The notes: generated from the letters alone by a model not told the origin. A stretch of DNA of 64,000 nucleotides from an uncultured virus (IMG/VR IMGVR_UViG_3300031088_000789) (IMGVR_UViG_3300031088_000789); one strand, 5' to 3'. Numbered from the stretch's first letter, positions 3,901 through 52,198 are shown. Program-made: numbers and translations.

Positions 3901-5019
3901 ATGTCTATTTTTCCACGTATTGAAACCCTCGATGACATGATGCCGCACATCAAAGACTGTGCATACATTTCTGTCAATAAACAGTCGAATGGTGCAAGCG
4001 TTGTTTGCTATAACATCAGCAACGGCGAGTCGTTCAGAACCCCAGTGGAAAAAGAAGCTCGCGGGATTACCTTTGATGATGCAGGCAAAATTCTGTCTCG
4101 CCCATTGCACAAGTTTTTCAACTTGGCAGAGCGTGCTGAAGTGCAACCAGCGGTTTTGGATTGGAACACAATGGTTGCAGGCTTTGACAAAATGGATGGT
4201 TCCATGATTTCTGGTGGCTTCTATAAAGGTGAGCTGTTCCTGAAATCGAAGAAGTCTTTCAAGTCGGACGTAGCTGTTTCGGCAGAAGGGTTTGTTGCTC
4301 AAAACCAAAAATATTATGACTTCACTAAATATTGCTCGCAGGCCAACCTGTCGCCAATTTTTGAATTCACTTCACCTAAACATCGTATCGTGTTGCGTTA
4401 TGACGAAGAAAACATGACTTTGCTGCATGTTCGTCATAATGTAACAGGTGAATATCTGATGCCTGTTGAAAAAGAGCGTTTGGCAGCACGGTTTGATATT
4501 CCTGTTAACAAACCTTTGTTTGGTGGTGAATTCGACATGGCTGACCTGTTGAAATCTCTGAACACTGTTGAAGGCATTGAAGGGTATGTTATCCAGTTTG
4601 CAAACGGCGAAATGGTTAAAATCAAAACCAAATGGTATATGAACCTTCACCATGCTGTTACCTTTGTGCGTGAGCGTGATATTGCCCGGTTGGTGGTTGA
4701 TGAAAAACTGGATGACTTCATTGCTTATCTGTCACTGAACGCACCAGAAGCTGATTTGAGCCATATCCACCGTATCAATGATGGTATCAAATCTGACATT
4801 GAAACCCTTGCACAATCAGTAAATGCGGTAGCAGAACAATACAAAGATGTTGATATTAAAACAGCGGCAATTGAACTGAAAGGTCATGAAAACTTTGGTT
4901 TCATCATGGGGGTAATTCGTGGTCACAAAAACGACTACTTGACCTATTATGCACGGAACCGCTTGAACGATTGGTCTTTGGAACAGGTTGATTTGGGTAG
5001 CTTCTCAAACGGAGTGTAA
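3901..5019 (+). CDS. T4 RNA ligase 1 (RnlA)-like RNA ligase
   Basis: EARG, SRPLHKFFN, motif I KMDGS, FEFTSP, motif IV EGYVI, motif V KIKTKWY. Confidence 0.9.
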   Translation: MSIFPRIETLDDMMPHIKDCAYISVNKQSNGASVVCYNISNGESFRTPVEKEARGITFDDAGKILSRPLHKFFNLAERAEVQPAVLDWNTMVAGFDKMDGSMISGGFYKGELFLKSKKSFKSDVAVSAEGFVAQNQKYYDFTKYCSQANLSPIFEFTSPKHRIVLRYDEENMTLLHVRHNVTGEYLMPVEKERLAARFDIPVNKPLFGGEFDMADLLKSLNTVEGIEGYVIQFANGEMVKIKTKWYMNLHHAVTFVRERDIARLVVDEKLDDFIAYLSLNAPEADLSHIHRINDGIKSDIETLAQSVNAVAEQYKDVDIKTAAIELKGHENFGFIMGVIRGHKNDYLTYYARNRLNDWSLEQVDLGSFSNGV

Positions 5020-5934: not shown

Positions 5935-5988
5935 TCTGAAAAGCAGATTTTGTTATAATACTGCCAGCCAATTATGATGGAGATTCAA

Positions 5989-7110
5989 ATGACTTATCAG
6001 AAAAAACTCTACCAGCAACTTATGACGCTGTTGGAAACCAATCCGGGTTCCTTTAAATATCGTGATGAAATTTCGTCGGTTGATGGCGGGACGTATCGTG
6101 TCTTTAACTATGACATTCCCAAACACTCTGAATTCAAACTTCCCGCTGCAAAAGATTGCCGTGGGGTGATGTTCTATATGGGTGGTGAAGAACCCCAGCT
6201 TGTGGCTTTGCCTATGCAAAAATTCTTCTCGTTGGGCGAAACTCCAGAAACGCAAAAAGTTAAACCAGAAGAAGCGGATTTTGCCTACCTGAAACCTGAT
6301 GGTTCTCTACTGACTAGCTATATTTCGCCAGTCAATGATAAGCTCTATTACAAGAGCAAAAAGAAACCAACTTTCAACGACTATGATTTGGTTGAAAAGT
6401 CGATTAGTCCAGCACTCCAAGCCGAAATTGAACGACTCACCCGCACTGGTGTATCGCTTGATTTGGAATTGACCACTCCGAAAAACCGTGTTTTCATTGA
6501 ATACACTGATTACGAAGTGCATGTATTGAAAGCTCGTGACATGAGCACTGGCGAGTATGTTGATATTCGTTCGGCTGAATTTGCTGCTGCATATCCTGTT
6601 ATTGCTGCCCATTTGGTCAAGCGTATTCCTATCAATGAACTCAATGTTAATGACCCTGAAATTGAAGGTTACGTCATTGAAATTGGCCCTGATATGTATA
6701 AGGTAAAGACCATTCCTTACCTGAAAATGTCGGCAGTTGTCAACATTCAAGACCGCTCGAAAGAACGTCAGTTCATCTACGAAGCAACCTTGCATGAAAT
6801 TCTGGATGAAATTCGTTCTCTGTATCATTACCGAACTCACAGTGAAAACTTCCCATTGGCTGAAATTCTGGCCCGCCTTGATGAAGTTGAAGACTATGCT
6901 CGTAAGAGCTATCATTACCTTGTTCGCACTGTTGAAGGCTTCTATGCTGAAAATAAAGACTTGGAACGTGGTGATTATGCTCGAAAAGCAAAAGAAGAAG
7001 CACCTTTGCTGCTTTCTGTGCTGATGAGTAAATATTCGGGTGATGATATTGATTACAAGAAATCGGCCATTATGGTGTTTTCTCGTAAACAAGTCCCCAT
7101 CCCTAATTAA
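5989..7110 (+). CDS. second T4 Rnl1-like RNA ligase
   Basis: DCRG, PMQKFF, motif I KPDGS, LELTTP, EGYVI, KVKT. Confidence 0.88.
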   Translation: MTYQKKLYQQLMTLLETNPGSFKYRDEISSVDGGTYRVFNYDIPKHSEFKLPAAKDCRGVMFYMGGEEPQLVALPMQKFFSLGETPETQKVKPEEADFAYLKPDGSLLTSYISPVNDKLYYKSKKKPTFNDYDLVEKSISPALQAEIERLTRTGVSLDLELTTPKNRVFIEYTDYEVHVLKARDMSTGEYVDIRSAEFAAAYPVIAAHLVKRIPINELNVNDPEIEGYVIEIGPDMYKVKTIPYLKMSAVVNIQDRSKERQFIYEATLHEILDEIRSLYHYRTHSENFPLAEILARLDEVEDYARKSYHYLVRTVEGFYAENKDLERGDYARKAKEEAPLLLSVLMSKYSGDDIDYKKSAIMVFSRKQVPIPN

Positions 7111-18953: not shown

Positions 18954-19022
18954 GTTTGATAATCCTCTTGGTTTGTGTGTTTATTATACAATAACTCACT
19001 GACATACACAAGATTTTTAACT

Positions 19023-19181
19023 TTATTTCTGTGATTTTTTGATATCTATCTGGGTTGTAGCTTCGCTTTTATGATCATTGGTGGATGGCTTTTCTTCGGC
19101 TATTGCCCCTGTTCCAAATAGTCCCATAAACACGCTTAGAACTAATCCTGTCATTTCTTTCTTCACATTTTCTTTTTTCAT
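19023..19181 (-). CDS. small signal-peptide-like protein (52 aa)
   Basis: AGGTG RBS; MKKENVKKEMTGLVLSVFMGLFGTGAIA-EEK. Confidence 0.55.
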   Translation of the reverse strand: MKKENVKKEMTGLVLSVFMGLFGTGAIAEEKPSTNDHKSEATTQIDIKKSQK

Positions 19182-19332
19182 TTTTCACCTTATATAGTTA
19201 GCTTGCTATGTAATTTATAAGTATACTCCTGTTATTTTTGATTACAAGCCTTTACTTTATGAAAGATTTTTCATTGCCATTTTTTCCTTTAAATGCTATA
19301 ATAGACGCTTAAATCAATGGAGAATTTAGACT

Positions 19333-19521
19333 ATGCCACTTGCCCCAGATCCTAATCCAGTTGCAGAAAAATTTGGTATTTGTCCCGGTTGTAACACTCA
19401 AATTGAGCCGCATGATGTCATCTATTGTATTTGTCGTTGCGGTGATCAAGATGCTGATCTCTATGATCGCATGGATGCAGATATGAATGCTAATCCAGTG
19501 GGAGAGTCAAAACCGTCTTAA
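19333..19521 (+). CDS. small zinc-ribbon protein
   Basis: CPGC...CICRC. Confidence 0.65.
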   Translation: MPLAPDPNPVAEKFGICPGCNTQIEPHDVIYCICRCGDQDADLYDRMDADMNANPVGESKPS

Positions 19522-19641
19522 TGGCGGTTTTTCTTAAAAAGAGTTGCTTTTGTTTTTATGATTTGTTAATATAGGTCGCGTTGAAGTTCTGCAGTCGAAT
19601 ACCTCAAACTTTCGTTTAGATAGTCAACTGAGGATACTATT

Positions 19642-19908
19642 ATGACCAAAACAGAACTGATTCACCTGCTGCAAACTGATGTTGATGTACGCTCGGCGGT
19701 TACTGATTTATTGAAAGATTCCATTGTGGATATGATGGCGGTTGATGCTGATTTGAGGTCTGCTGTGACGGCAGTTGTCAAAGAAGATATTTCATTCTGT
19801 TTATCCTGTTCAGATTACTATGACTATGATTACTCAGGTTATAGCATTTCTTTGGAGTTGGATGATTGTCAGGTTACGTCTACTACATTTAGCATTAGAA
19901 GTTCGTAA
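19642..19908 (+). CDS. acidic hypothetical protein with internal repeat
   Basis: DVDVRSAVT / DADLRSAVT. Confidence 0.7.
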   Translation: MTKTELIHLLQTDVDVRSAVTDLLKDSIVDMMAVDADLRSAVTAVVKEDISFCLSCSDYYDYDYSGYSISLELDDCQVTSTTFSIRSS

Positions 19909-20018
19909 ATAAGGCCCCTTTCATGGGGCTTTTTTGTTTTTTAAAAAAAATACTTATTTTATTTGTTTTTTATATTCTTTTTTGTTATAATGTTGCACTA
20001 TTTTAATGAGGTGTATCA

Positions 20019-20096
20019 ATGAGCCTTCCTACTGGTGTTCACATTTTTGGTAATCCCCATGACCAAAAAGGTGTGGGCGACATTTTCTATCGTTAA
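20019..20096 (+). CDS. 25-aa mini-ORF in a complete cassette (possibly a truncated gene)
   Basis: TATAAT, GAGGTG RBS, MSLPTGVHIFGNPHDQKGVGDIFYR, terminator. Confidence 0.45.
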   Translation: MSLPTGVHIFGNPHDQKGVGDIFYR

Positions 20097-20188
20097 CCAT
20101 ATTAAAAGACCTACTTCGGTAGATCTTTTTCATTCATTTGTCAAGAAAATTTTGATGTAAATAATTGAAAAATAAGCGAAAAAAGTGC

Positions 20189-20217
20189 TTGACCCCTACG
20201 ATACTTTTCTCTATAAT
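20189..20217 (+). promoter_or_regulatory. sigma70 promoter of the tRNA/ncRNA operon
   Basis: TTGACC-17 bp-TATAAT with upstream A-tracts. Confidence 0.85.
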
Positions 20218-20262
20218 GGGCACATCAAGACGAAACGGAGAAACAAAATCTTGCAACGGTAA

Positions 20263-20375
20263 ATCAGCACTTCTTACAAGTGGCTTGTTTTGGATAAATA
20301 ACTTCGGTTACCAATATAGCTTGTAAGTATGGAACACTACTCGGTGCTAACATAAATAGAGTAGACCATATTGAT
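20263..20375 (+). ncRNA. candidate pseudoknotted RNA upstream of tRNA-Leu
   Basis: CTTACAAG/CTTGTAAG, TAAC-TTCG-GTTA, TATGG/CCATA, CTACTC/GAGTAG; AGCAC pairs with loop GTGCT. Confidence 0.5.
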
Positions 20376-20380
20376 ATTAT

Positions 20381-20465
20381 GCCCATGTGGTGAAATTGGT
20401 AGACGCGGCGGATTCAAAATCCGCTTCCGCAAGGAGTGTCGGTTCGAGTCCGACCTTGGGCACCA
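20381..20465 (+). tRNA. tRNA-Leu(CAA)
   Basis: Class II cloverleaf, GCGGA-TTCAAAA-TCCGC, GGTTCGAGTCC, CCA. Confidence 0.95.
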
Positions 20466-20472
20466 GCTTTAA

Positions 20473-20736
20473 AGTGAAGGTAGGCATTGCTACTATGACC
20501 AGTTGCTTGGTGATAGGTGTTTCTCAGCAGATGGTATGCTGACAGCCCAAACGAAGGGGTTGAATAAAGAATGTTAGTTTGCGACAATATGGTTTCACAG
20601 GTATTTAATTACCAAGTCTGACTTCTTGTAGAGTTAGATGTGTTTTCTTCTCACGAAGACAGGGCTAGCAAAGGCTCTGAATTAAATCAGATTGTGTTGC
20701 AAATGAAAGTTCGACACTGGTATATTTATCTTCACT
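20473..20736 (+). ncRNA. candidate large multi-helix ncRNA between two tRNA-Leu genes
   Basis: Closing stem AGTGAAGGTAG/TTATCTTCACT and at least 7 internal helices; no ORF. Confidence 0.6.
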
Positions 20737-20741
20737 ATTAT

Positions 20742-20825
20742 GCCCGGTTGGTGAAATGGTAGACACAGAAGACTTAAAATCTTCCGGCGAAAGCCGTGCC
20801 AGTTCGAGTCTGGCACCGGGCACCA
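20742..20825 (+). tRNA. tRNA-Leu(TAA)
   Basis: GAAGA-CTTAAAA-TCTTC, long variable arm, CCA. Confidence 0.95.
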
Positions 20826-20884
20826 GATTGAAAAAAGATGAAAAAAAGAGTTGCAAATGTTGATGAAAAGGCTTAATATAGAGC

Positions 20885-21020
20885 CTTCTTAACTAGGAAC
20901 GGAAAGAGGACTAACAGAGATTTTCGTAGGTTGGCATCCTTCGAATTCAAGCAAATGACCTAAGACCTTTGGTAGACAAATAAATCCAAAGTAGGGGTTT
21001 CAATAAAAAGATTGGAAACC
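20885..21020 (+). ncRNA. candidate small RNA
   Basis: TTGCAA-17-TAATAT promoter, GGA-rich 5' end, three hairpins, no ORF. Confidence 0.35.
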
Positions 21021-21115
21021 GCTTGAAATAGATTGCTAGGTATTTAAACTTTATTATTATACTATTTAATTAAGGATACCGGATGGTTTAGTGCGTCCTA
21101 AATCATCCACCCCAT

Positions 21116-21192
21116 GGGACTTTAGCTCAGTTGGTTAGAGCAACAGACTCATAATCGGCAGGTCACAGGTTCAAGTCCTGTAAGTCCCACCA
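21116..21192 (+). tRNA. tRNA(CAT), Ile2-like (lysidine type), imperfect anticodon stem
   Basis: TAGCTCAGTTGGTTAGAGC...GACTCATAATC...GGTTCAAGTCC...ACCA; two anticodon-stem mismatches. Confidence 0.8.
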
Positions 21193-21202
21193 GATTGTAA
21201 AT

Positions 21203-21428
21203 AACATTAACCGCTAAGATAATCTAATGTAAGTGCCAGATGTGAGCCAATAATGCAGCATTAATACCTAATTTAATCTTATTATTGAATTTAGTATAAT
21301 TGATGATTGCCCTATAACTTTTCTCTCTAAAAACAGTGCCAGAGGTGAGCTACCCATGCAGTAAGTCACTTAACTTATAGATGACTAATTAATAGAGATT
21401 GAAAAACCCCTCAAAGTAGGGGTTTTTT
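21203..21428 (+). repeat. tRNA-trailing module, copy 1
   Basis: Near-identical to 50970..51193 and 51888..52114; internal direct repeat AGTGCCAGAGGTGAGC. Confidence 0.92.
21214..21261 (-). CDS. candidate 15-codon minigene MLHYWLTSGTYIRLS
   Basis: AGGT SD-like site, ATG, frame conserved in 3 copies with synonymous changes. Confidence 0.4.
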   Translation of the reverse strand: MLHYWLTSGTYIRLS

Positions 21429-21534
21429 GCTATTGGCTTTTTGTGTAATTTCAATCATTTATTGTTGTAAATCGTGTGCTTTTTTGATACAATTACCCTA
21501 CTGTAAACGTTCATTCAGCTTTGGAGCCATAATT

Positions 21535-21705
21535 ATGCCTATTACCGCAACTAGCAAGGTAGATCTTTCCACTGGTGCAGTTAGTTTTGAATATGATATG
21601 GATTCTTTCAAAATGACACCAGAAGAAAAACAAAAATATCTTGAGCATGAAGTGCTTTACGCCATGATGCTAGCAGATGTTCGTCAGAATCCACGTTCTT
21701 CCTAA
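21535..21705 (+). CDS. hypothetical protein
   Basis: GGAG RBS before MPITAT. Confidence 0.65.
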   Translation: MPITATSKVDLSTGAVSFEYDMDSFKMTPEEKQKYLEHEVLYAMMLADVRQNPRSS

Positions 21706-21734
21706 ACTTTATTCTCTATCGCTAGGTGATTATC

Positions 21735-21941
21735 ATGCACGAAGAAATCATTAAGACCTATTATCGTAAACGGGCTGATGGAAATTTAGGAGTTGCTGAA
21801 ATAAGTAGCTATAATTATCCAGATCAAGAGCGTTTTCTTCAAGCTTGTTATTTTTTCGAAGCCGAAGGCTACTATGACAATGCAGAGCAGGCTCGTGATG
21901 CTGATTACGTTCCGCCAAAGAAATACCCACGAACTGAATAA
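21735..21941 (+). CDS. hypothetical protein
   Basis: AGGTG RBS. Confidence 0.7.
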   Translation: MHEEIIKTYYRKRADGNLGVAEISSYNYPDQERFLQACYFFEAEGYYDNAEQARDADYVPPKKYPRTE

Positions 21942-22044
21942 CATATTGTCATCCTGATAAAACCGTCTTCTAGGCGGTTTTTTGTTGCTCATTTTTTAGT
22001 TTTTTGGTATACTGCTTTCATCAAAACCATTGCAGGCTTTTATC

Positions 22045-22521
22045 ATGATTTCACTTGTTTCGTATAGTAAACCAGCAGAAAATCCAAAACTAGTAAGTTT
22101 GGTTTATTTTTCTATGCGAAACCGTTATACCTCCGTTTCCGATCCGGCTGGTCTGACTTTTAAAGAGGTCCGTGAAATTCTTGCCAATCAATCTGTCACT
22201 GCAATTCAAGATGGTGATCGGATTGTGGGCATTCTTCGCGTTAGTGAAGTTACTTTTCAAATGAGGCACAAAATGGGCCTTCCTGATGGTGTTGGTTACC
22301 AGAACCTTGGATTGCTCTATATTGCTAAAAATGAACGTGGTAATGGCTATGCCAGTCAAGTAGTTGAACAATGCTTGAAAGAGCATAAAAACTTGATTTA
22401 TATTGTTCATAAAAGCAATGTGGCGAGCAATAAAGTTGCACGAAAATATTTCAATTTCTTTAAGGAAGATAAATTTTGGAGGGCAGTGGAAGCTTATAAT
22501 ATTTACAAAATTGAACAATAA
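22045..22521 (+). CDS. GNAT-family acetyltransferase
   Basis: LYIAKNERGNGYASQ; NVASNKVARK. Confidence 0.8.
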   Translation: MISLVSYSKPAENPKLVSLVYFSMRNRYTSVSDPAGLTFKEVREILANQSVTAIQDGDRIVGILRVSEVTFQMRHKMGLPDGVGYQNLGLLYIAKNERGNGYASQVVEQCLKEHKNLIYIVHKSNVASNKVARKYFNFFKEDKFWRAVEAYNIYKIEQ

Positions 22522-22533
22522 GAGGTTTCAATT

Positions 22534-22896
22534 ATGCCAACATTGATTTTTATTATTTGTGCTGTATTCCTTTTGGGTTGTTTTGGTTGTGCCTTCATGT
22601 ATTACAAGAACAATCCTTACATTGGTTCTACTTTCTTTGTTGATGCTGATGCAGGAAAGGATTCTCCTTTGTATATTGCTAAGTCCGTAGTGGCTGATGG
22701 CTGTGGCCTTCCAGTTCTAAAATTTAAACGAATTTCTTGTGTCCCCGGACACACTTATACTCAGGCTGTTTCTGATTGGTTTTATAATGTCTTTGAAAAC
22801 GCTCCCCTTATTAACCTTGTTCAAATCAGTGAAGAAAAGGCGAATGACATTTACAAGAATCAACGAAAGTATACAAATCAAAATGCAGTAACCTAA
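22534..22896 (+). CDS. N-terminally anchored membrane protein
   Basis: Hydrophobic N-terminus; GAGG RBS. Confidence 0.7.
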   Translation: MPTLIFIICAVFLLGCFGCAFMYYKNNPYIGSTFFVDADAGKDSPLYIAKSVVADGCGLPVLKFKRISCVPGHTYTQAVSDWFYNVFENAPLINLVQISEEKANDIYKNQRKYTNQNAVT

Positions 22897-22988
22897 ATCA
22901 AAAATTAAAGATCTGGTTCTAACCAGATTTTTTTGCTTCAGGTTATTCAATATGCTATAATTCAAGCATACAACTCAGAGGCAATGCC

Positions 22989-23612
22989 ATGAACGAAAAT
23001 GTTATCCCCTCACATGTGTTGGCTTCAGCAGAATCTTTTTTTCATGCAGAACCTTTCTTTTTTGAAGGTTATGTGAATGTTCGTTTTCGTCCCATCAACA
23101 TGATTGCTGAAAAAATTGGTTGCTGTGGTATCGCTACTATGCCTTCTGACGAAGAAATTATCTTTATGAGCTATGGAGTTCCAAATTACCCGTTGGAAGG
23201 GGAGTTTGTTCGGAACCGGGTTACTACGCCTATTAAGAAAGGAAAGAAAAAAGTTCCTTATGATATTGATTTGAACTTGATCCATATTTCAATCAAGTTG
23301 AAACACAAAAACACTTATCGTAATAACATGACGTTCCTATTTAACGAAAATGAACTTCATTCTATTACTTTAAACCAATCGGTAGTGCCTAATGGCTCTG
23401 ATGAAGTTAACTACCTGTTGTATTCATCCGAACTTCAAGCTAAATATCAGTTGAAGCAAAACAACATGCGGGATTTTTATGTATTTCATTATCTGATGAA
23501 CAACTCTGGATTAAAATCTATGTTGACGGCTGCGTCGTATCTGGAACAGTTTGAAGAATTTATGCAATATTATCATTCTAATTTAGACTTGTTGAAAATG
23601 CACGACATTTAA
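22989..23612 (+). CDS. hypothetical protein with C-terminal LDLLKMHDI tail
   Basis: GAGG RBS; 207 aa. Confidence 0.75.
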   Translation: MNENVIPSHVLASAESFFHAEPFFFEGYVNVRFRPINMIAEKIGCCGIATMPSDEEIIFMSYGVPNYPLEGEFVRNRVTTPIKKGKKKVPYDIDLNLIHISIKLKHKNTYRNNMTFLFNENELHSITLNQSVVPNGSDEVNYLLYSSELQAKYQLKQNNMRDFYVFHYLMNNSGLKSMLTAASYLEQFEEFMQYYHSNLDLLKMHDI

Positions 23613-23740
23613 TTGGCATATCAGAGTAATCACTAGATGTATTTTTAGCTTAATCCGGTAGAGATGTCGGATTTTTTTGCTTTAAACTCGTTTTCATGTT
23701 ATACTCATGTTCTGTTATTCAACTCAATCAAGGTGTGATT

Positions 23741-24079
23741 ATGATCGAAATCTCAGTTTCTGACATGGTTTTTGTAAAAAATGTTGCGGATGAACTTGAA
23801 GCTGTTTTTTCTGATATGTCTGGTCGTTTGGTAGAAAACATTCCGGGTTCGTTTAAAGCAGCTTGCTTCCAATCATCGTATGAAATTCATACAAAATTTG
23901 GAACCCATCAGTTTGCTGTTTACAGCTATTTGCGTAGTCGAATTTTAGAAAATCCACAACACGATGTTGTCGAAGAGTTCAACAGTCTACATCAAGTGTT
24001 TATCATGGCTATCAAAATTGCTGGAGAACGTTTTCAGAAAACGTTGGTTGAAGCCCGTGAAAGCCGTGCAATGGGTTAG
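23741..24079 (+). CDS. hypothetical protein
   Basis: AGGTG RBS. Confidence 0.7.
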   Translation: MIEISVSDMVFVKNVADELEAVFSDMSGRLVENIPGSFKAACFQSSYEIHTKFGTHQFAVYSYLRSRILENPQHDVVEEFNSLHQVFIMAIKIAGERFQKTLVEARESRAMG

Positions 24080-24312: not shown

Positions 24313-24403
24313 GTTGAAAAAAAAGCTTTACACAAAACTTGTTTTTAGATATACTTAACTCATCAAAACGAAACAACACAATCAAATAGTTAGGAGATAC
24401 AAC

Positions 24404-24538
24404 ATGCAAGGTTCTTTCGGTGACGCAACTGAACGTTTCTCGGGTAACAAGAAGCGTGATACTGAAAAGGCACGTTTCAACAAGGCTGACAAACAACGTC
24501 GCCAAAAACGCCGTAATCGACACAACGATGCAGATTAA
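24404..24538 (+). CDS. small basic protein, MQGS family copy 1 (44 aa)
   Basis: AGGAG RBS; MQGSFGDATERFSGNKKR...KRRNRHNDAD; not in ORF track. Confidence 0.85.
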   Translation: MQGSFGDATERFSGNKKRDTEKARFNKADKQRRQKRRNRHNDAD

Positions 24539-33788: not shown

Positions 33789-33877
33789 AAAAAAGCTTTA
33801 CACAGGTTTACGATTTCGCTATAATTACCCCATCAAGACGAAACACACAATCAAATCAAAAGGTTAGGAGATACAAA

Positions 33878-34012
33878 ATGCAAGGTTCTTTCGGTGATGC
33901 AACTGAACGTTTCAGCGGTGGTAAGCGTAAAGATGCTTACAAATCCAAAGAAAACAAGAATGACCGTGCTTTTCGTGATAAACGCCGTAAACGTCATGAA
34001 TATGCAGATTGA
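33878..34012 (+). CDS. small basic protein, MQGS family copy 2 (44 aa)
   Basis: AGGAG RBS; MQGSFGDATERFSGGKRK...KRRKRHEYAD; not in ORF track. Confidence 0.85.
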   Translation: MQGSFGDATERFSGGKRKDAYKSKENKNDRAFRDKRRKRHEYAD

Positions 34013-48095: not shown

Positions 48096-48109
48096 AATTT
48101 AAGTTTTAT

Positions 48110-48276
48110 GGCTGTTGCTAAACTGGATCGGCTGGAAGTGTCAAACGTGCAGACACCGAGAGTCGTGGATGTGGAGGCGGAGTGAAGATGAAATAACAAG
48201 TCAGAAGAGATTGCACGTACTCCGAGGCTTGTGAAATAGTCCTAACTTGGTGGTTCGACCCCATCAACAGCTACCA
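48110..48276 (+). ncRNA. tRNA-like RNA with large pseudoknotted insert
   Basis: Acceptor GGCTGTT/AACAGCT-A-CCA, T arm GGTGG-TTCGACC-CCATC, ~130 nt interior with 4 interlocking helices. Confidence 0.75.
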
Positions 48277-48385
48277 AACACTAAACCACCTTCGGGTGGT
48301 TTTTTATTGTCTAAAATAATTTGATTTTTATCTACACATTCGTTATAATAAAACTCTATTTTTATCATTATATGAGGATGCATAT

Positions 48386-49779: not shown

Positions 49780-49941
49780 AATAAGGGCCTGATGGCCCTT
49801 TTTCATTTATTGCTTAAAAATCAACCAATTAGAGATTATTTTTTTCAAAAATAATTAAAAAAAACGAAAATAATGCTTTACAGGCAGCACCAATTTCCCT
49901 ATAATGAACCCATCAAAACGAAACATACAAGGAAAAACGAA

Positions 49942-50070
49942 ATGCAAGGTTCTCACCGCGACATGACCGAAAAGTTCTCTTCCAAAGGCCGTGATAAAGA
50001 AGATCGCAGCTTTGCCAAGAAAGACCGTCAGTTCCGTGATAAACGCCGCAATCGTCATCAAGACGTTTAA
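49942..50070 (+). CDS. small basic protein, MQGS family copy 3 (42 aa)
   Basis: AAGGA RBS; MQGSHRDMTEKFSS...RDKRRNRHQDV; abuts tRNA-Arg. Confidence 0.85.
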   Translation: MQGSHRDMTEKFSSKGRDKEDRSFAKKDRQFRDKRRNRHQDV

Positions 50071-50689: not shown

Positions 50690-50876
50690 AAATCTCTTTT
50701 AATAAATTCATAAAGCCCGTCAAAAGCGGGCTTTTTATTTGTCTGCATTTTCACACATAGTTATGACTCATACATTATTCCTTCAGCATTTTTTTTCATT
50801 TTTTTGAAAATAAATGATTGATTCATCGCCTAAACCTTGCTAGAATAGCCTCATTGAAACGAAACAAGCAATTAAA

Positions 50877-50961
50877 GCCCGGTTGGTGAAATCGGTAGAC
50901 ACAGAAGACTTAAAATCTTCCGGCGAAAGTCGTGCCAGTTCGAGTCTGGCACCGGGCACCA
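50877..50961 (+). tRNA. tRNA-Leu(TAA)
   Basis: Near-identical to 20742..20825. Confidence 0.95.
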
Positions 50962-50969
50962 AATTAAAT

Positions 50970-51193
50970 ACCATTAACCGCTAACATAATATAATGTAAG
51001 TGCCAGAGGTGAGCCAATAATGCAGCATTAACACCTAATTTAATCTTATTATTGAATTTAGTATAATTGATGATTGCCGAATAACTTTAAATCTTAACTT
51101 AAGTGCCCGAGGTGAACTAGCCATGAAGTAAGTAATAAACTTATAGATGACTAATTAATAGAGATTAGAAAACCCCTACTTGTAGGGGTTTTT
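50970..51193 (+). repeat. tRNA-trailing module, copy 2 (antisense minigene 50981..51028)
   Basis: Aligns with copies 1 and 3. Confidence 0.92.
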
Positions 51194-51688: not shown

Positions 51689-51790
51689 CCGTTCTTTTAT
51701 TGTTTTTTCTCTAAAATACTTAAAAAAAATGCTTGCCTCACACACCAGAAATTGCTAGAATAGCATCATTGAAACGAAGCAAGATTTAAA

Positions 51791-51877
51791 GCCCGAGTGG
51801 TGAAATTGGTAGACGCGGGGGACTTAAAATCCCTTTTCTTAATCGGAGTGCCGGTTCGAGTCCGGCCTCGGGCACCA
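51791..51877 (+). tRNA. tRNA-Leu(TAA)
   Basis: GGGGA-CTTAAAA-TCCCT, class II, CCA. Confidence 0.93.
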
Positions 51878-51887
51878 AATTAAAACA

Positions 51888-52114
51888 ACATCAACCGTTA
51901 AGATAATCTAATGTAAGTGCCAGAGGTGAGCCAATAATGCAGCATTAATACCTAATTTAATCTTATTATTGAATTTAGTATAATTGATGATTGCCGAATA
52001 ACCTTTAAACCCCTTATAACCAGTGCCAGAGGTGAGCTACCGATGCAGTAAGTCTCTTAACTTATATGACTAATTAAATTAAGATTGAAAAACCCCTCCT
52101 AATAGGGGTTTTTT
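51888..52114 (+). repeat. tRNA-trailing module, copy 3 (antisense minigene 51898..51945)
   Basis: Aligns with copies 1 and 2. Confidence 0.92.
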
Positions 52115-52198
52115 GTTGTTATTTTTTATAAAATTGTTGTTTTTATTTTCTACTTTTGGTAAAATACTGCCTATCAACCATTCATAAGGTCAGCCATA

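Follow-up and report, generated by a model that had tools for sequence, protein, structure and literature searches.

In Escherichia coli, tRNA-linked repeats such as RtT are repeats of ~100-200 nt that are co-transcribed distal to tRNA genes and released by processing; the RtT RNA of the tyrT operon is presumably the one filed as Rfam RF00391. Phage T4 encodes two small stable RNAs, "species 1 and 2" (rnaC and rnaD), within its tRNA cluster, and type III antitoxin RNAs of the ToxI kind consist of near-identical tandem repeats of 34-40 nt followed by the toxin gene. Natural RNAs that act as start-stop or two-to-three-codon "genes" are rare, and to our knowledge the known cases are the lambda bar minigene and the CreT toxins of CRISPR loci.

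The minigene literature gives the lambda bar minigene as AUG AUA UAA and reports that peptidyl-tRNA accumulates when peptidyl-tRNA hydrolase (Pth) is limiting (PMC8012679). It further reports that shortening a minigene from 8 to 2 codons raises both drop-off and recycling of ribosomes on the same RNA, that minigenes mainly inhibit genes using the codon of the sequestered tRNA (PMC2490762), and that, with too little Pth, expressing the bar minigene causes peptidyl-tRNA to drop off and starves the cell of tRNA (PMC8012679; PMC2490762). CreT acts as an RNA and not through its peptide; it needs an efficient AUG preceded by a strong SD, a mini-ORF of a few codons and, downstream, a hairpin, and its toxicity depends on a pair of rare codons in a row (AGA AGA, AUA AUA) or a pair of prolines (PMC8501985; PMC10097628; bioRxiv 10.64898/2026.06.02.729485).

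A two-unit module behind three phage tRNA genes

The window analysed here is a stretch of 64,000 nucleotides from an uncultured virus (IMG/VR IMGVR_UViG_3300031088_000789). Its G+C content is 37%, and nearly all of it is made up of short genes on the + strand, every one of which has promoter-like and terminator-like sites of its own. The recognisable proteins are two T4 RnlA-like RNA ligases, an HNH endonuclease, a thymidine kinase, a Nudix hydrolase and a cell-wall hydrolase, and the closest deposited phage protein to the window RNA ligase, at 42% identity, belongs to a Ralstonia jumbo phage. On account of its gene layout, its recognisable proteins and the Ralstonia jumbo phage match, the window reads as part of an uncultured large phage. 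Its tRNA-rich region is probably an early one. A tblastn search of a 403-aa window protein against deposited phages returned no match, and no related loci were found through this protein. Pfam, applied to 30 window ORFs, named no Cas protein.

The two RNA ligase genes are paralogues of the T4 RnlA type (PHROG 562), located at 3901-5019 and 5974-7110 (E = 5e-71 and 2e-46), and the presence of such a pair in a region rich in tRNA genes suggests tRNA repair. Small and highly basic proteins of one family (42 aa, MQGSHRDMTEKF...RDKRRNRHQDV) are encoded three times in the window, with one copy at 49942-50070 and repeat families D13/D15 also at ~24392-24526 and ~33866-34000. One of these genes ends 10 nt before tRNA-Arg(tct), and a homologue at the related locus L001 ends just before tRNA-Leu(taa).

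Seven tRNA genes were called in the window by ARAGORN, three of which are directly followed by a module of ~235 nt that ends in a terminator. The three copies (A, B and C) are ~90% alike. An earlier sequence-only reading had noticed a ~225-bp element repeated behind three tRNA genes, and this repetition is borne out: the downstream stretches can be aligned from the CCA of the tRNA through to the terminator hairpin, and an ungapped repeat search finds a 131-nt family (D1; 21194-21324, 50961-51091 and 51878-52008) at 90-92% identity to the reference copy, with two further families (D11, D12) covering the 3' half of the modules. The tRNAs are, as that reading had it, non-identical (tRNA-Met(CAT) and two different tRNA-Leu(TAA)), and each module does end in a terminator (hairpins at 21402-21427, 51168-51193 and 52086-52115). 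Two of its boundaries needed correction, since similarity between the copies begins at the CCA itself instead of ~10 nt after it, and the repeating entity is a unit of ~105 nt present twice per module. The ~29-nt motif that it placed twice in each copy is present as described, its GTGCC beginning at 21233, 21336, 51000, 51103, 51917 and 52023. The features of the three modules are as follows.

21116..21192, +, tRNA-Met(CAT) in front of module A (ARAGORN; Rfam tRNA 66.7 bits)
21193..21428, +, module A: two ~105-nt units, then terminator (alignment; repeat families D1, D11, D12)
21222..21306, +, unit A1 (profile match, cmsearch, 57 bits)
21253-21264, +, putative minigene of unit A1, ATG CAG CAT TAA (ORF table)
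21255..21310, +, AT-rich hairpin of unit A1, overlapping the minigene (fold)
21326..21406, +, unit A2, SD GAGGTGA (cmsearch, 64.1 bits)
21356-21364, +, putative minigene of unit A2, ATG CAG TAA
21402..21427, +, predicted intrinsic terminator hairpin of module A, then T run (inverted repeat, 10 nt arms, 100% complementary)
50818..50846, +, sigma-70-like promoter of tRNA-Leu and module B, TTGATT-17-TAGAAT with TG (consensus match only)
50877..50961, +, tRNA-Leu(TAA) in front of module B (ARAGORN; Rfam)
50989..51073, +, unit B1 (cmsearch, 61.1 bits)
51020-51031, +, putative minigene of unit B1, ATG CAG CAT TAA
51093..51171, +, unit B2 (cmsearch, 54.3 bits)
51123-51131, +, putative minigene of unit B2, ATG AAG TAA
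51168..51193, +, predicted intrinsic terminator of module B (terminator scan)
51733..51761, +, sigma-70-like promoter of tRNA-Leu and module C, TTGCCT-17-TAGAAT with TG (consensus match only)
51791..51877, +, second, non-identical tRNA-Leu(TAA) in front of module C (ARAGORN; Rfam)
51906..51990, +, unit C1 (cmsearch, 61.8 bits)
51937-51948, +, putative minigene of unit C1, ATG CAG CAT TAA
52014..52091, +, unit C2 (cmsearch, 57.1 bits)
52043-52051, +, putative minigene of unit C2, ATG CAG TAA
52086..52115, +, predicted intrinsic terminator of module C (terminator scan)

A sequence profile recovers all six window units, and no score in the rest of the 64 kb is better than E = 0.94. The pattern GAGGTGA-N7-ATG-N3-TAA occurs three times in the window and not once in 100 shuffles, so the repetition goes beyond chance. 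The promoter-like sites before the tRNAs of modules B and C have an extended -10 and, because one of them precedes each tRNA, these two modules appear to belong to small units of promoter, tRNA, module and terminator. A variant promoter-plus-leader (TAGAAT ... CATTGAAACGAAAC) heads both of these units. A related promoter-plus-leader family, D9 (a TATAAT-like hexamer, then CATCAAGACGAAAC), heads protein genes as well as minigene arrays, with sites at 20206-20247, 24344-24385, 33814-33855 and 49894-49935 in the window and others in L003, L005 and L007.

The tRNA(CAT) at 21116-21192 has an A-G mismatch in its anticodon stem where the orthologue in L007 (2837-2913) has C-G, and the Rfam scores are 66.7 and 74.2 bits, respectively. 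This tRNA may be an elongator Met or an Ile2 (lysidine) species.

The modules match no described RNA family

Searching the window and the related loci L001-L007 with Rfam 15 at gathering score identified only tRNAs and left the modules unmatched, in agreement with the earlier reading, which did not recognise the element as a known family. When E values up to 5 were admitted, the module matches (rimP leader, Phe leader, rnk leader and others, all far below their gathering scores) were confined to unit 2's terminator end and the DNA that follows. Comparing tRNA plus module by blastn with 50,697 phage records matched the tRNA part alone. No inverted repeat in 21150-21480 pairs the module ends, those found being internal hairpins and the terminator, so that the modules differ from MITEs in lacking terminal inverted repeats. 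In the literature, a search on tRNA-linked repeats produced nothing relevant, and a full-text search of a limited collection gave no description of tandem minigene arrays in phages.

The modules resemble RtT in being repeated elements distal to tRNA genes, but they have no RtT match at gathering score and their units occur also without tRNAs. As with T4 species 1 and 2, small RNAs would be encoded among phage tRNA genes, whereas the modules showed no similarity to any deposited phage among the 50,697 records, in which only the tRNA part was matched.

A predicted start signal followed by an immediate stop

Alignment of 29 non-identical units from the window and its relatives shows which parts of the unit are held constant. 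Mean column identity is 63%. GTGA (within GAGGTGA), the C that stands two bases after it and the ATG are the invariant columns, and AGTGCC, which immediately precedes the SD, is nearly so. The 5 bases before the ATG vary freely (TACCG, CAATA, TAGGA, TAAAA), yet their number does not, and the distance from SD to ATG is the same in all 29 units. Insertions and deletions occur only 5' of the SD, where they lengthen GAGGTGA to GGAGGTGA. Because SD and ATG are fixed while the spacer is free in sequence and constant in length, this has the properties of a translation initiation region. Consistent with this, the median predicted SD:anti-SD pairing, calculated with a 13-nt tail that we take to be of the E. 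coli type, is -11.7 kcal/mol for 30 units compared with -5.6 kcal/mol for 83 long window ORFs, none of which (0/83) reaches the unit median (Mann-Whitney p = 3e-15).

The reading frame after the ATG is equally distinctive. In all 32 non-identical units an in-frame stop closes frame 0, at +3, +6, +9 or +15; counting the ATG, the ORF has 1 codon in 2 units, 2 codons in 12, 3 codons in 17 and 5 codons in 1. The mean number of codons to the first stop is 2.6 in frame 0, compared with 8.4 in frame +1 and 8.6 in frame +2, and a stop falls within 3 codons in 31/32, 5/32 and 2/32 units, respectively; these counts are inflated and not independent, as the units are related by descent. The stop is TAA in 29 units, TAG in 2 and TGA in 1. 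At the second codon we find CAG (21 units), CCG (6), AAG (2), GAG (1) or the stop TAA (2), and the third codon, preceding the stop, takes nine different values with the stop retained. The NNG codons used are minor among their synonyms in the window's own genes, as distinct from the host's (CAG 33%, CCG 9%, AAG 23%, GAG 18%). On these grounds the "29-nt motif" of the earlier reading is a predicted translation start region made up of SD, ATG and a frame of 1-3 codons.

For a derivation of the motif from tRNA sequence, the sole match is one of 11 nt to the 3' end of tRNA-Met (10/11 bases), which is equalled by 2% of shuffles before correction for 28 comparisons.

RNA structure is not conserved among the units. 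The whole of module A folds barely better than its shuffles, with z = -1.87 for the + strand and -0.30 for the - strand. The long AT-rich hairpin reported earlier does fold, at ~21255-21310, but it is a property of close copies, present in the window, L004 and L010 and partial in L001, and RNAalifold finds no conserved pairs in the 29 units. As for the proposed covariance analysis, the three window copies could be aligned and contain no compensatory pairs. The last unit of each module runs into the GC-rich terminator hairpin; internal units have weak AT-rich hairpins with no conserved pairs. What is conserved is thus a start signal at the level of primary sequence, given the absence of conserved pairs in the RNAalifold consensus. 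A stem closing the start region into a loop was rejected as too weak (-2.5 kcal/mol, compared with -2.0 for mismatched pairings; permutation p = 0.02).

The reading that we prefer is that the units are co-transcribed RNAs composed of minigenes that would engage ribosomes, and we consider it about evenly balanced between right and wrong. Among its competitors, the one that survives best holds that the units form a non-coding RNA in which the ~29-nt motif is a site for protein binding or cleavage or a base-pairing seed, the likeness to SD and ATG being bait or incidental; it might be a decoy, a repeat RNA akin to an antitoxin, or an imitation of a translation start site aimed at an RNase, and ribosomes would not be its partner. 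Such a function could account for AGTGCC, a sequence with no part in initiation whose conservation equals that of the SD, and a tandem array with one promoter and a terminator at its end recalls type III antitoxin repeat RNAs and phage pseudo-ToxI. It does not predict in-frame stops at +3, +6, +9 or +15 with a variable third codon, nor a spacer that is free in sequence at fixed length. Furthermore, units that are ~105 nt long and diverged (63% mean column identity) are unlike the 34-40-nt, near-identical repeats of the ToxI kind, and no conserved protein gene was found adjoining the stand-alone arrays described below. Taken together, we regard this as an unlikely explanation, albeit one with a real chance of being correct.

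Units in related phages and their position relative to tRNA genes

Scanning metagenomes with a degenerate form of the motif identified seven loci, and a looser scan of viral contigs identified eight; a scan of viral contigs with the exact A-variant of the motif had given no match. Five single matches in bacterial or archaeal genomes were judged to be chance, the four that were inspected being in GC-rich DNA. The relatives are found in contigs whose lengths range from 110 kb to 1.86 Mb and in IMG/VR records of uncultured jumbo phages that measure 152-437 kb; two of these records are rated 96% and 98% complete. We assign the relatives to the same phage group as the window because several neighbouring genes are common to both. 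In these relatives the units, again of ~105 nt, are single or in tandem, in arrays of 1-5. A profile built from the 29 units matches 10 units at four sites in a 290-kb record and, in four other records, a single site of three units each, that is, 3 to 10 units at 1 to 4 sites per record. The 6 window units and the 22 matches in these five related phage records all lie on one strand per record, and a reversed-pattern control gave no match.

L001, L006 and L007 come from a single metagenome contig of 1,859,102 bp, at 745 kb, 777 kb and 1,043 kb (300 kb apart), and L003 lies in one of 1,539,155 bp. IMG/VR holds only 179-290-kb "provirus" pieces that were apparently cut from the 1.5-1.9 Mb contigs, as they contain identical arrays. 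These unit-bearing contigs of megabase scale may be very large phage-like genomes, integrated elements or assembly chimeras.

The 16 sites in the window and the related contigs are distributed as follows; some are orthologous to each other, for which reason they are not independent events.

Directly 3' of a tRNA, 7 sites: window (three), L001 (two), L004, L010
Just 5' of a tRNA, 2 sites: L007 (tRNA-Met), L033 (tRNA-Arg)
No tRNA called within 2.5-3 kb on each side, 5 sites: L002/L014, L003/L008, L006/L012, L015, L011/L013
Nearest tRNA or tRNA-like gene ~650-950 nt away, 2 sites: L005, L009

The unit is thus tRNA-associated, a link that is frequent and real, without being dedicated to tRNAs or an appendage of them, since 7/16 sites are 3' of a tRNA and the rest are 5' (2) or have no tRNA adjacent (7). 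This departs from the sequence-only reading, which had described a dedicated tRNA-linked element and had asked whether homologues are always 3' of tRNAs; they are not. The tRNA-linked form keeps a fixed order of type-1 unit, type-2 unit and terminator, and the stand-alone arrays consist of tandem units behind the same type of promoter-plus-leader, with a terminator at the end.

The same distribution bears on a second alternative, in which the module is a cis-acting tRNA trailer that controls tRNA processing, stability or 3' end formation. Every window copy is tRNA-linked, and at 7 of the 16 sites (window, L001, L004 and L010) the module starts right after CCA with the same two-unit order, as a trailer would. 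Against this, the 2.5-3 kb flanking five sites on either side contain no tRNA, two further sites lie upstream of a tRNA and two at a distance of 650-950 nt; within the window, four of the seven tRNAs have no module, and the tRNAs that do have one differ in identity. A trailer function is for these reasons improbable.

We see as little merit in a selfish or neutral repeat, whether decayed gene starts or a small mobile or recombination-prone element with no function of its own that spreads among the short transcription units of the phage. Variation in copy number and position among the related phages (3 to 10 units, 1 to 4 sites), the tandem amplification of units and the location of the L007 unit on the other side of the same tRNA-Met are all what such a repeat would produce. 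It would not be expected to be strictly strand-specific as the units are, and terminal inverted repeats are absent. Moreover, SD, spacing, ATG and early stop have been retained in units that are otherwise only ~63% alike by column, which argues for selection rather than decay and makes this alternative a poor one. Finally, it is very improbable that the units function at the level of DNA (as internal promoters or as some other repeat to which a protein binds), for although TATAAT-like hexamers occur in many units, with TATAAT, TAGAAT or GATAAT recurring ~10-35 bp upstream of the next unit, and promoter-like matches lie directly before unit 1 at 21195-21223 and 51880-51907, these matches score 9/12 where shuffles of the same regions give 4-7 such matches, the hexamers are out of register across units, and the upstream AYYAACCRCT is found at no other window promoter, its 2 matches both being inside modules.

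Some of the related loci have additional features. The stand-alone arrays of L002 (3295-3390, +) and L006 (2850-2935, -) share a conserved tail, ACGGTGYGGT ... TGACAATTTAACGTCYCCCACC, before the terminator, which contains a CCTCC/CCCACC stretch resembling the anti-SD sequence. In L033 (1560-1650, -), two 8-codon ORFs with their own SDs, read by eye as MKEEFDDI and MKDEHDDL, lie between two minigene units in the tRNA-Arg(tct) leader. Rfam places two tRNA matches side by side in L005 (3866-4131, -), 118 and 136 nt long and scoring 38.6 and 44.2 bits; they look like tRNA genes with long insertions, and ARAGORN calls neither.

A candidate role in engaging ribosomes

The anatomy of the units, their conservation, their strand specificity and their reading-frame signature can be read directly from the DNA. 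In the minigene reading, the module would be the distal part of a short transcription unit consisting of a sigma-70-like promoter, a tRNA, two units of ~105 nt and an intrinsic terminator. Each unit would be a minigene in which an unusually strong SD (GAGGTGA, sometimes GGAGGTGA) and a free spacer of fixed length lead to an ATG, and a stop comes after 0-2 further codons (4 in one unit); AT-rich sequence or the terminator hairpin lies beyond it. Most likely the RNA would share a transcript with the tRNA or have a promoter to itself and, because each unit joins a strong SD to an ATG and an immediate stop, it would most likely act by being bound and repeatedly "translated" by ribosomes, with neither a peptide nor a conserved fold as the active principle. 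Ribosomes would thereby be tied up, and possibly also the tRNAs that read the few minigene codons. Lambda bar minigenes and the CreT toxins act in this way. Transcription and ribosome binding, like any effect on the host, are inferences of ours.

For a virulent jumbo phage, such an RNA could plausibly serve to redirect the translation of its host in the early phase of infection. A function in host shut-off is a tentative idea, which we think unlikely as it stands. A bolder version, to which we give the same low weight, is that tandem arrays of minigenes with super-strong SDs are an offensive RNA weapon of jumbo phages against translation, a viral counterpart of CreT. The arrays would be transcribed early from host-type promoters, often in one transcript with phage tRNAs; futile start-stop cycles would trap ribosomes, lock up host tRNAs for CAG, CCG, AAG and GAG, or both; and as an AT-rich phage uses G-ending codons little, host synthesis would fall and phage synthesis go on.

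The design of a minigene or mini-ORF RNA is itself already known, and what appears to be new is that jumbo phages have conserved arrays of it in tandem, frequently fused to tRNA genes. Like CreT, the phage units have a strong SD at a fixed distance from an invariant ATG and a mini-ORF of 1-5 codons with a stop (32/32 units, 31 of them with no more than 3 codons). The likeness that we draw is one of design. Whereas CreT is a single copy beside a CreA guide in the cas locus of a cell, the phage units form tandem arrays in jumbo phages and are often fused to tRNA genes. With 0-2 sense codons after the ATG (4 in one unit), no phage unit has tandem identical or proline codons. The exact two-codon form of lambda bar (AUG, sense codon, stop) is found in 12/32 phage units, but the sense codon is CAG, CCG, AAG or GAG and in no unit AUA, and the phage units differ further in their much stronger SD, tandem arrays, conserved 5' AGTGCC and linkage to tRNA genes. 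Because tandem rare or proline codons are absent, we do not file the phage units as members of CreT or bar.

Several observations fit poorly with the minigene reading. A role in ribosome binding leaves the conserved AGTGCC in front of the SD without explanation, and the SD of unit A1 is weakened to GATGTGA. The start region is predicted to be no more accessible than the remaining RNA (0.45 unpaired in each case). CreT toxicity requires tandem rare or proline codons, which the minigenes do not have, and the five related records contain neither Pth (PF01195; 0/5) nor an RF-1-domain protein (PF00472; 0/5) that would tie the units to peptidyl-tRNA biology. An RNA for shut-off should, in addition, harm the phage's own translation.

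If the minigene reading is true, the units would be a second, independent natural setting for RNAs that act as start-stop or two-to-three-codon "genes" and a candidate for RNA-based control of host translation by a phage. The family is conserved and present in multiple copies, and it has the strongest predicted ribosome-binding sites in the window. It also illustrates that the "intergenic" DNA around phage tRNA genes can contain organised elements that are missed by gene callers and by Rfam.

Contig coverage of the module A region and a further strong-SD minigene

No RNA run is listed among the 23 sequencing runs that carry the window sequence. We also compared the contigs of four sequencing runs with window positions 19000-24000. 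In two runs of one study, which we guess to be RNA-Seq, contigs cover ~19.3-19.9 kb and 20.2-21.43 kb, the latter including the module, and none covers 21.5-23.3 kb; contigs of a DNA run cover all of 19000-24000, including 21.5-23.3 kb.

Behind tRNA-Leu(caa), at 48096-48300, lies a non-coding stretch of ~190 nt with tRNA-like ends, in which the 5' sequence GGCTGTTG pairs with CAACAGC just before ACCA and GGTGGTTCGACCCCATC resembles a T-arm. Neither ARAGORN nor Rfam calls a tRNA here, and the fold is no better than that of shuffles (z = 0.22). Within this stretch, at 48188-48196, is a further putative minigene with a strong SD, ATG AAA TAA.
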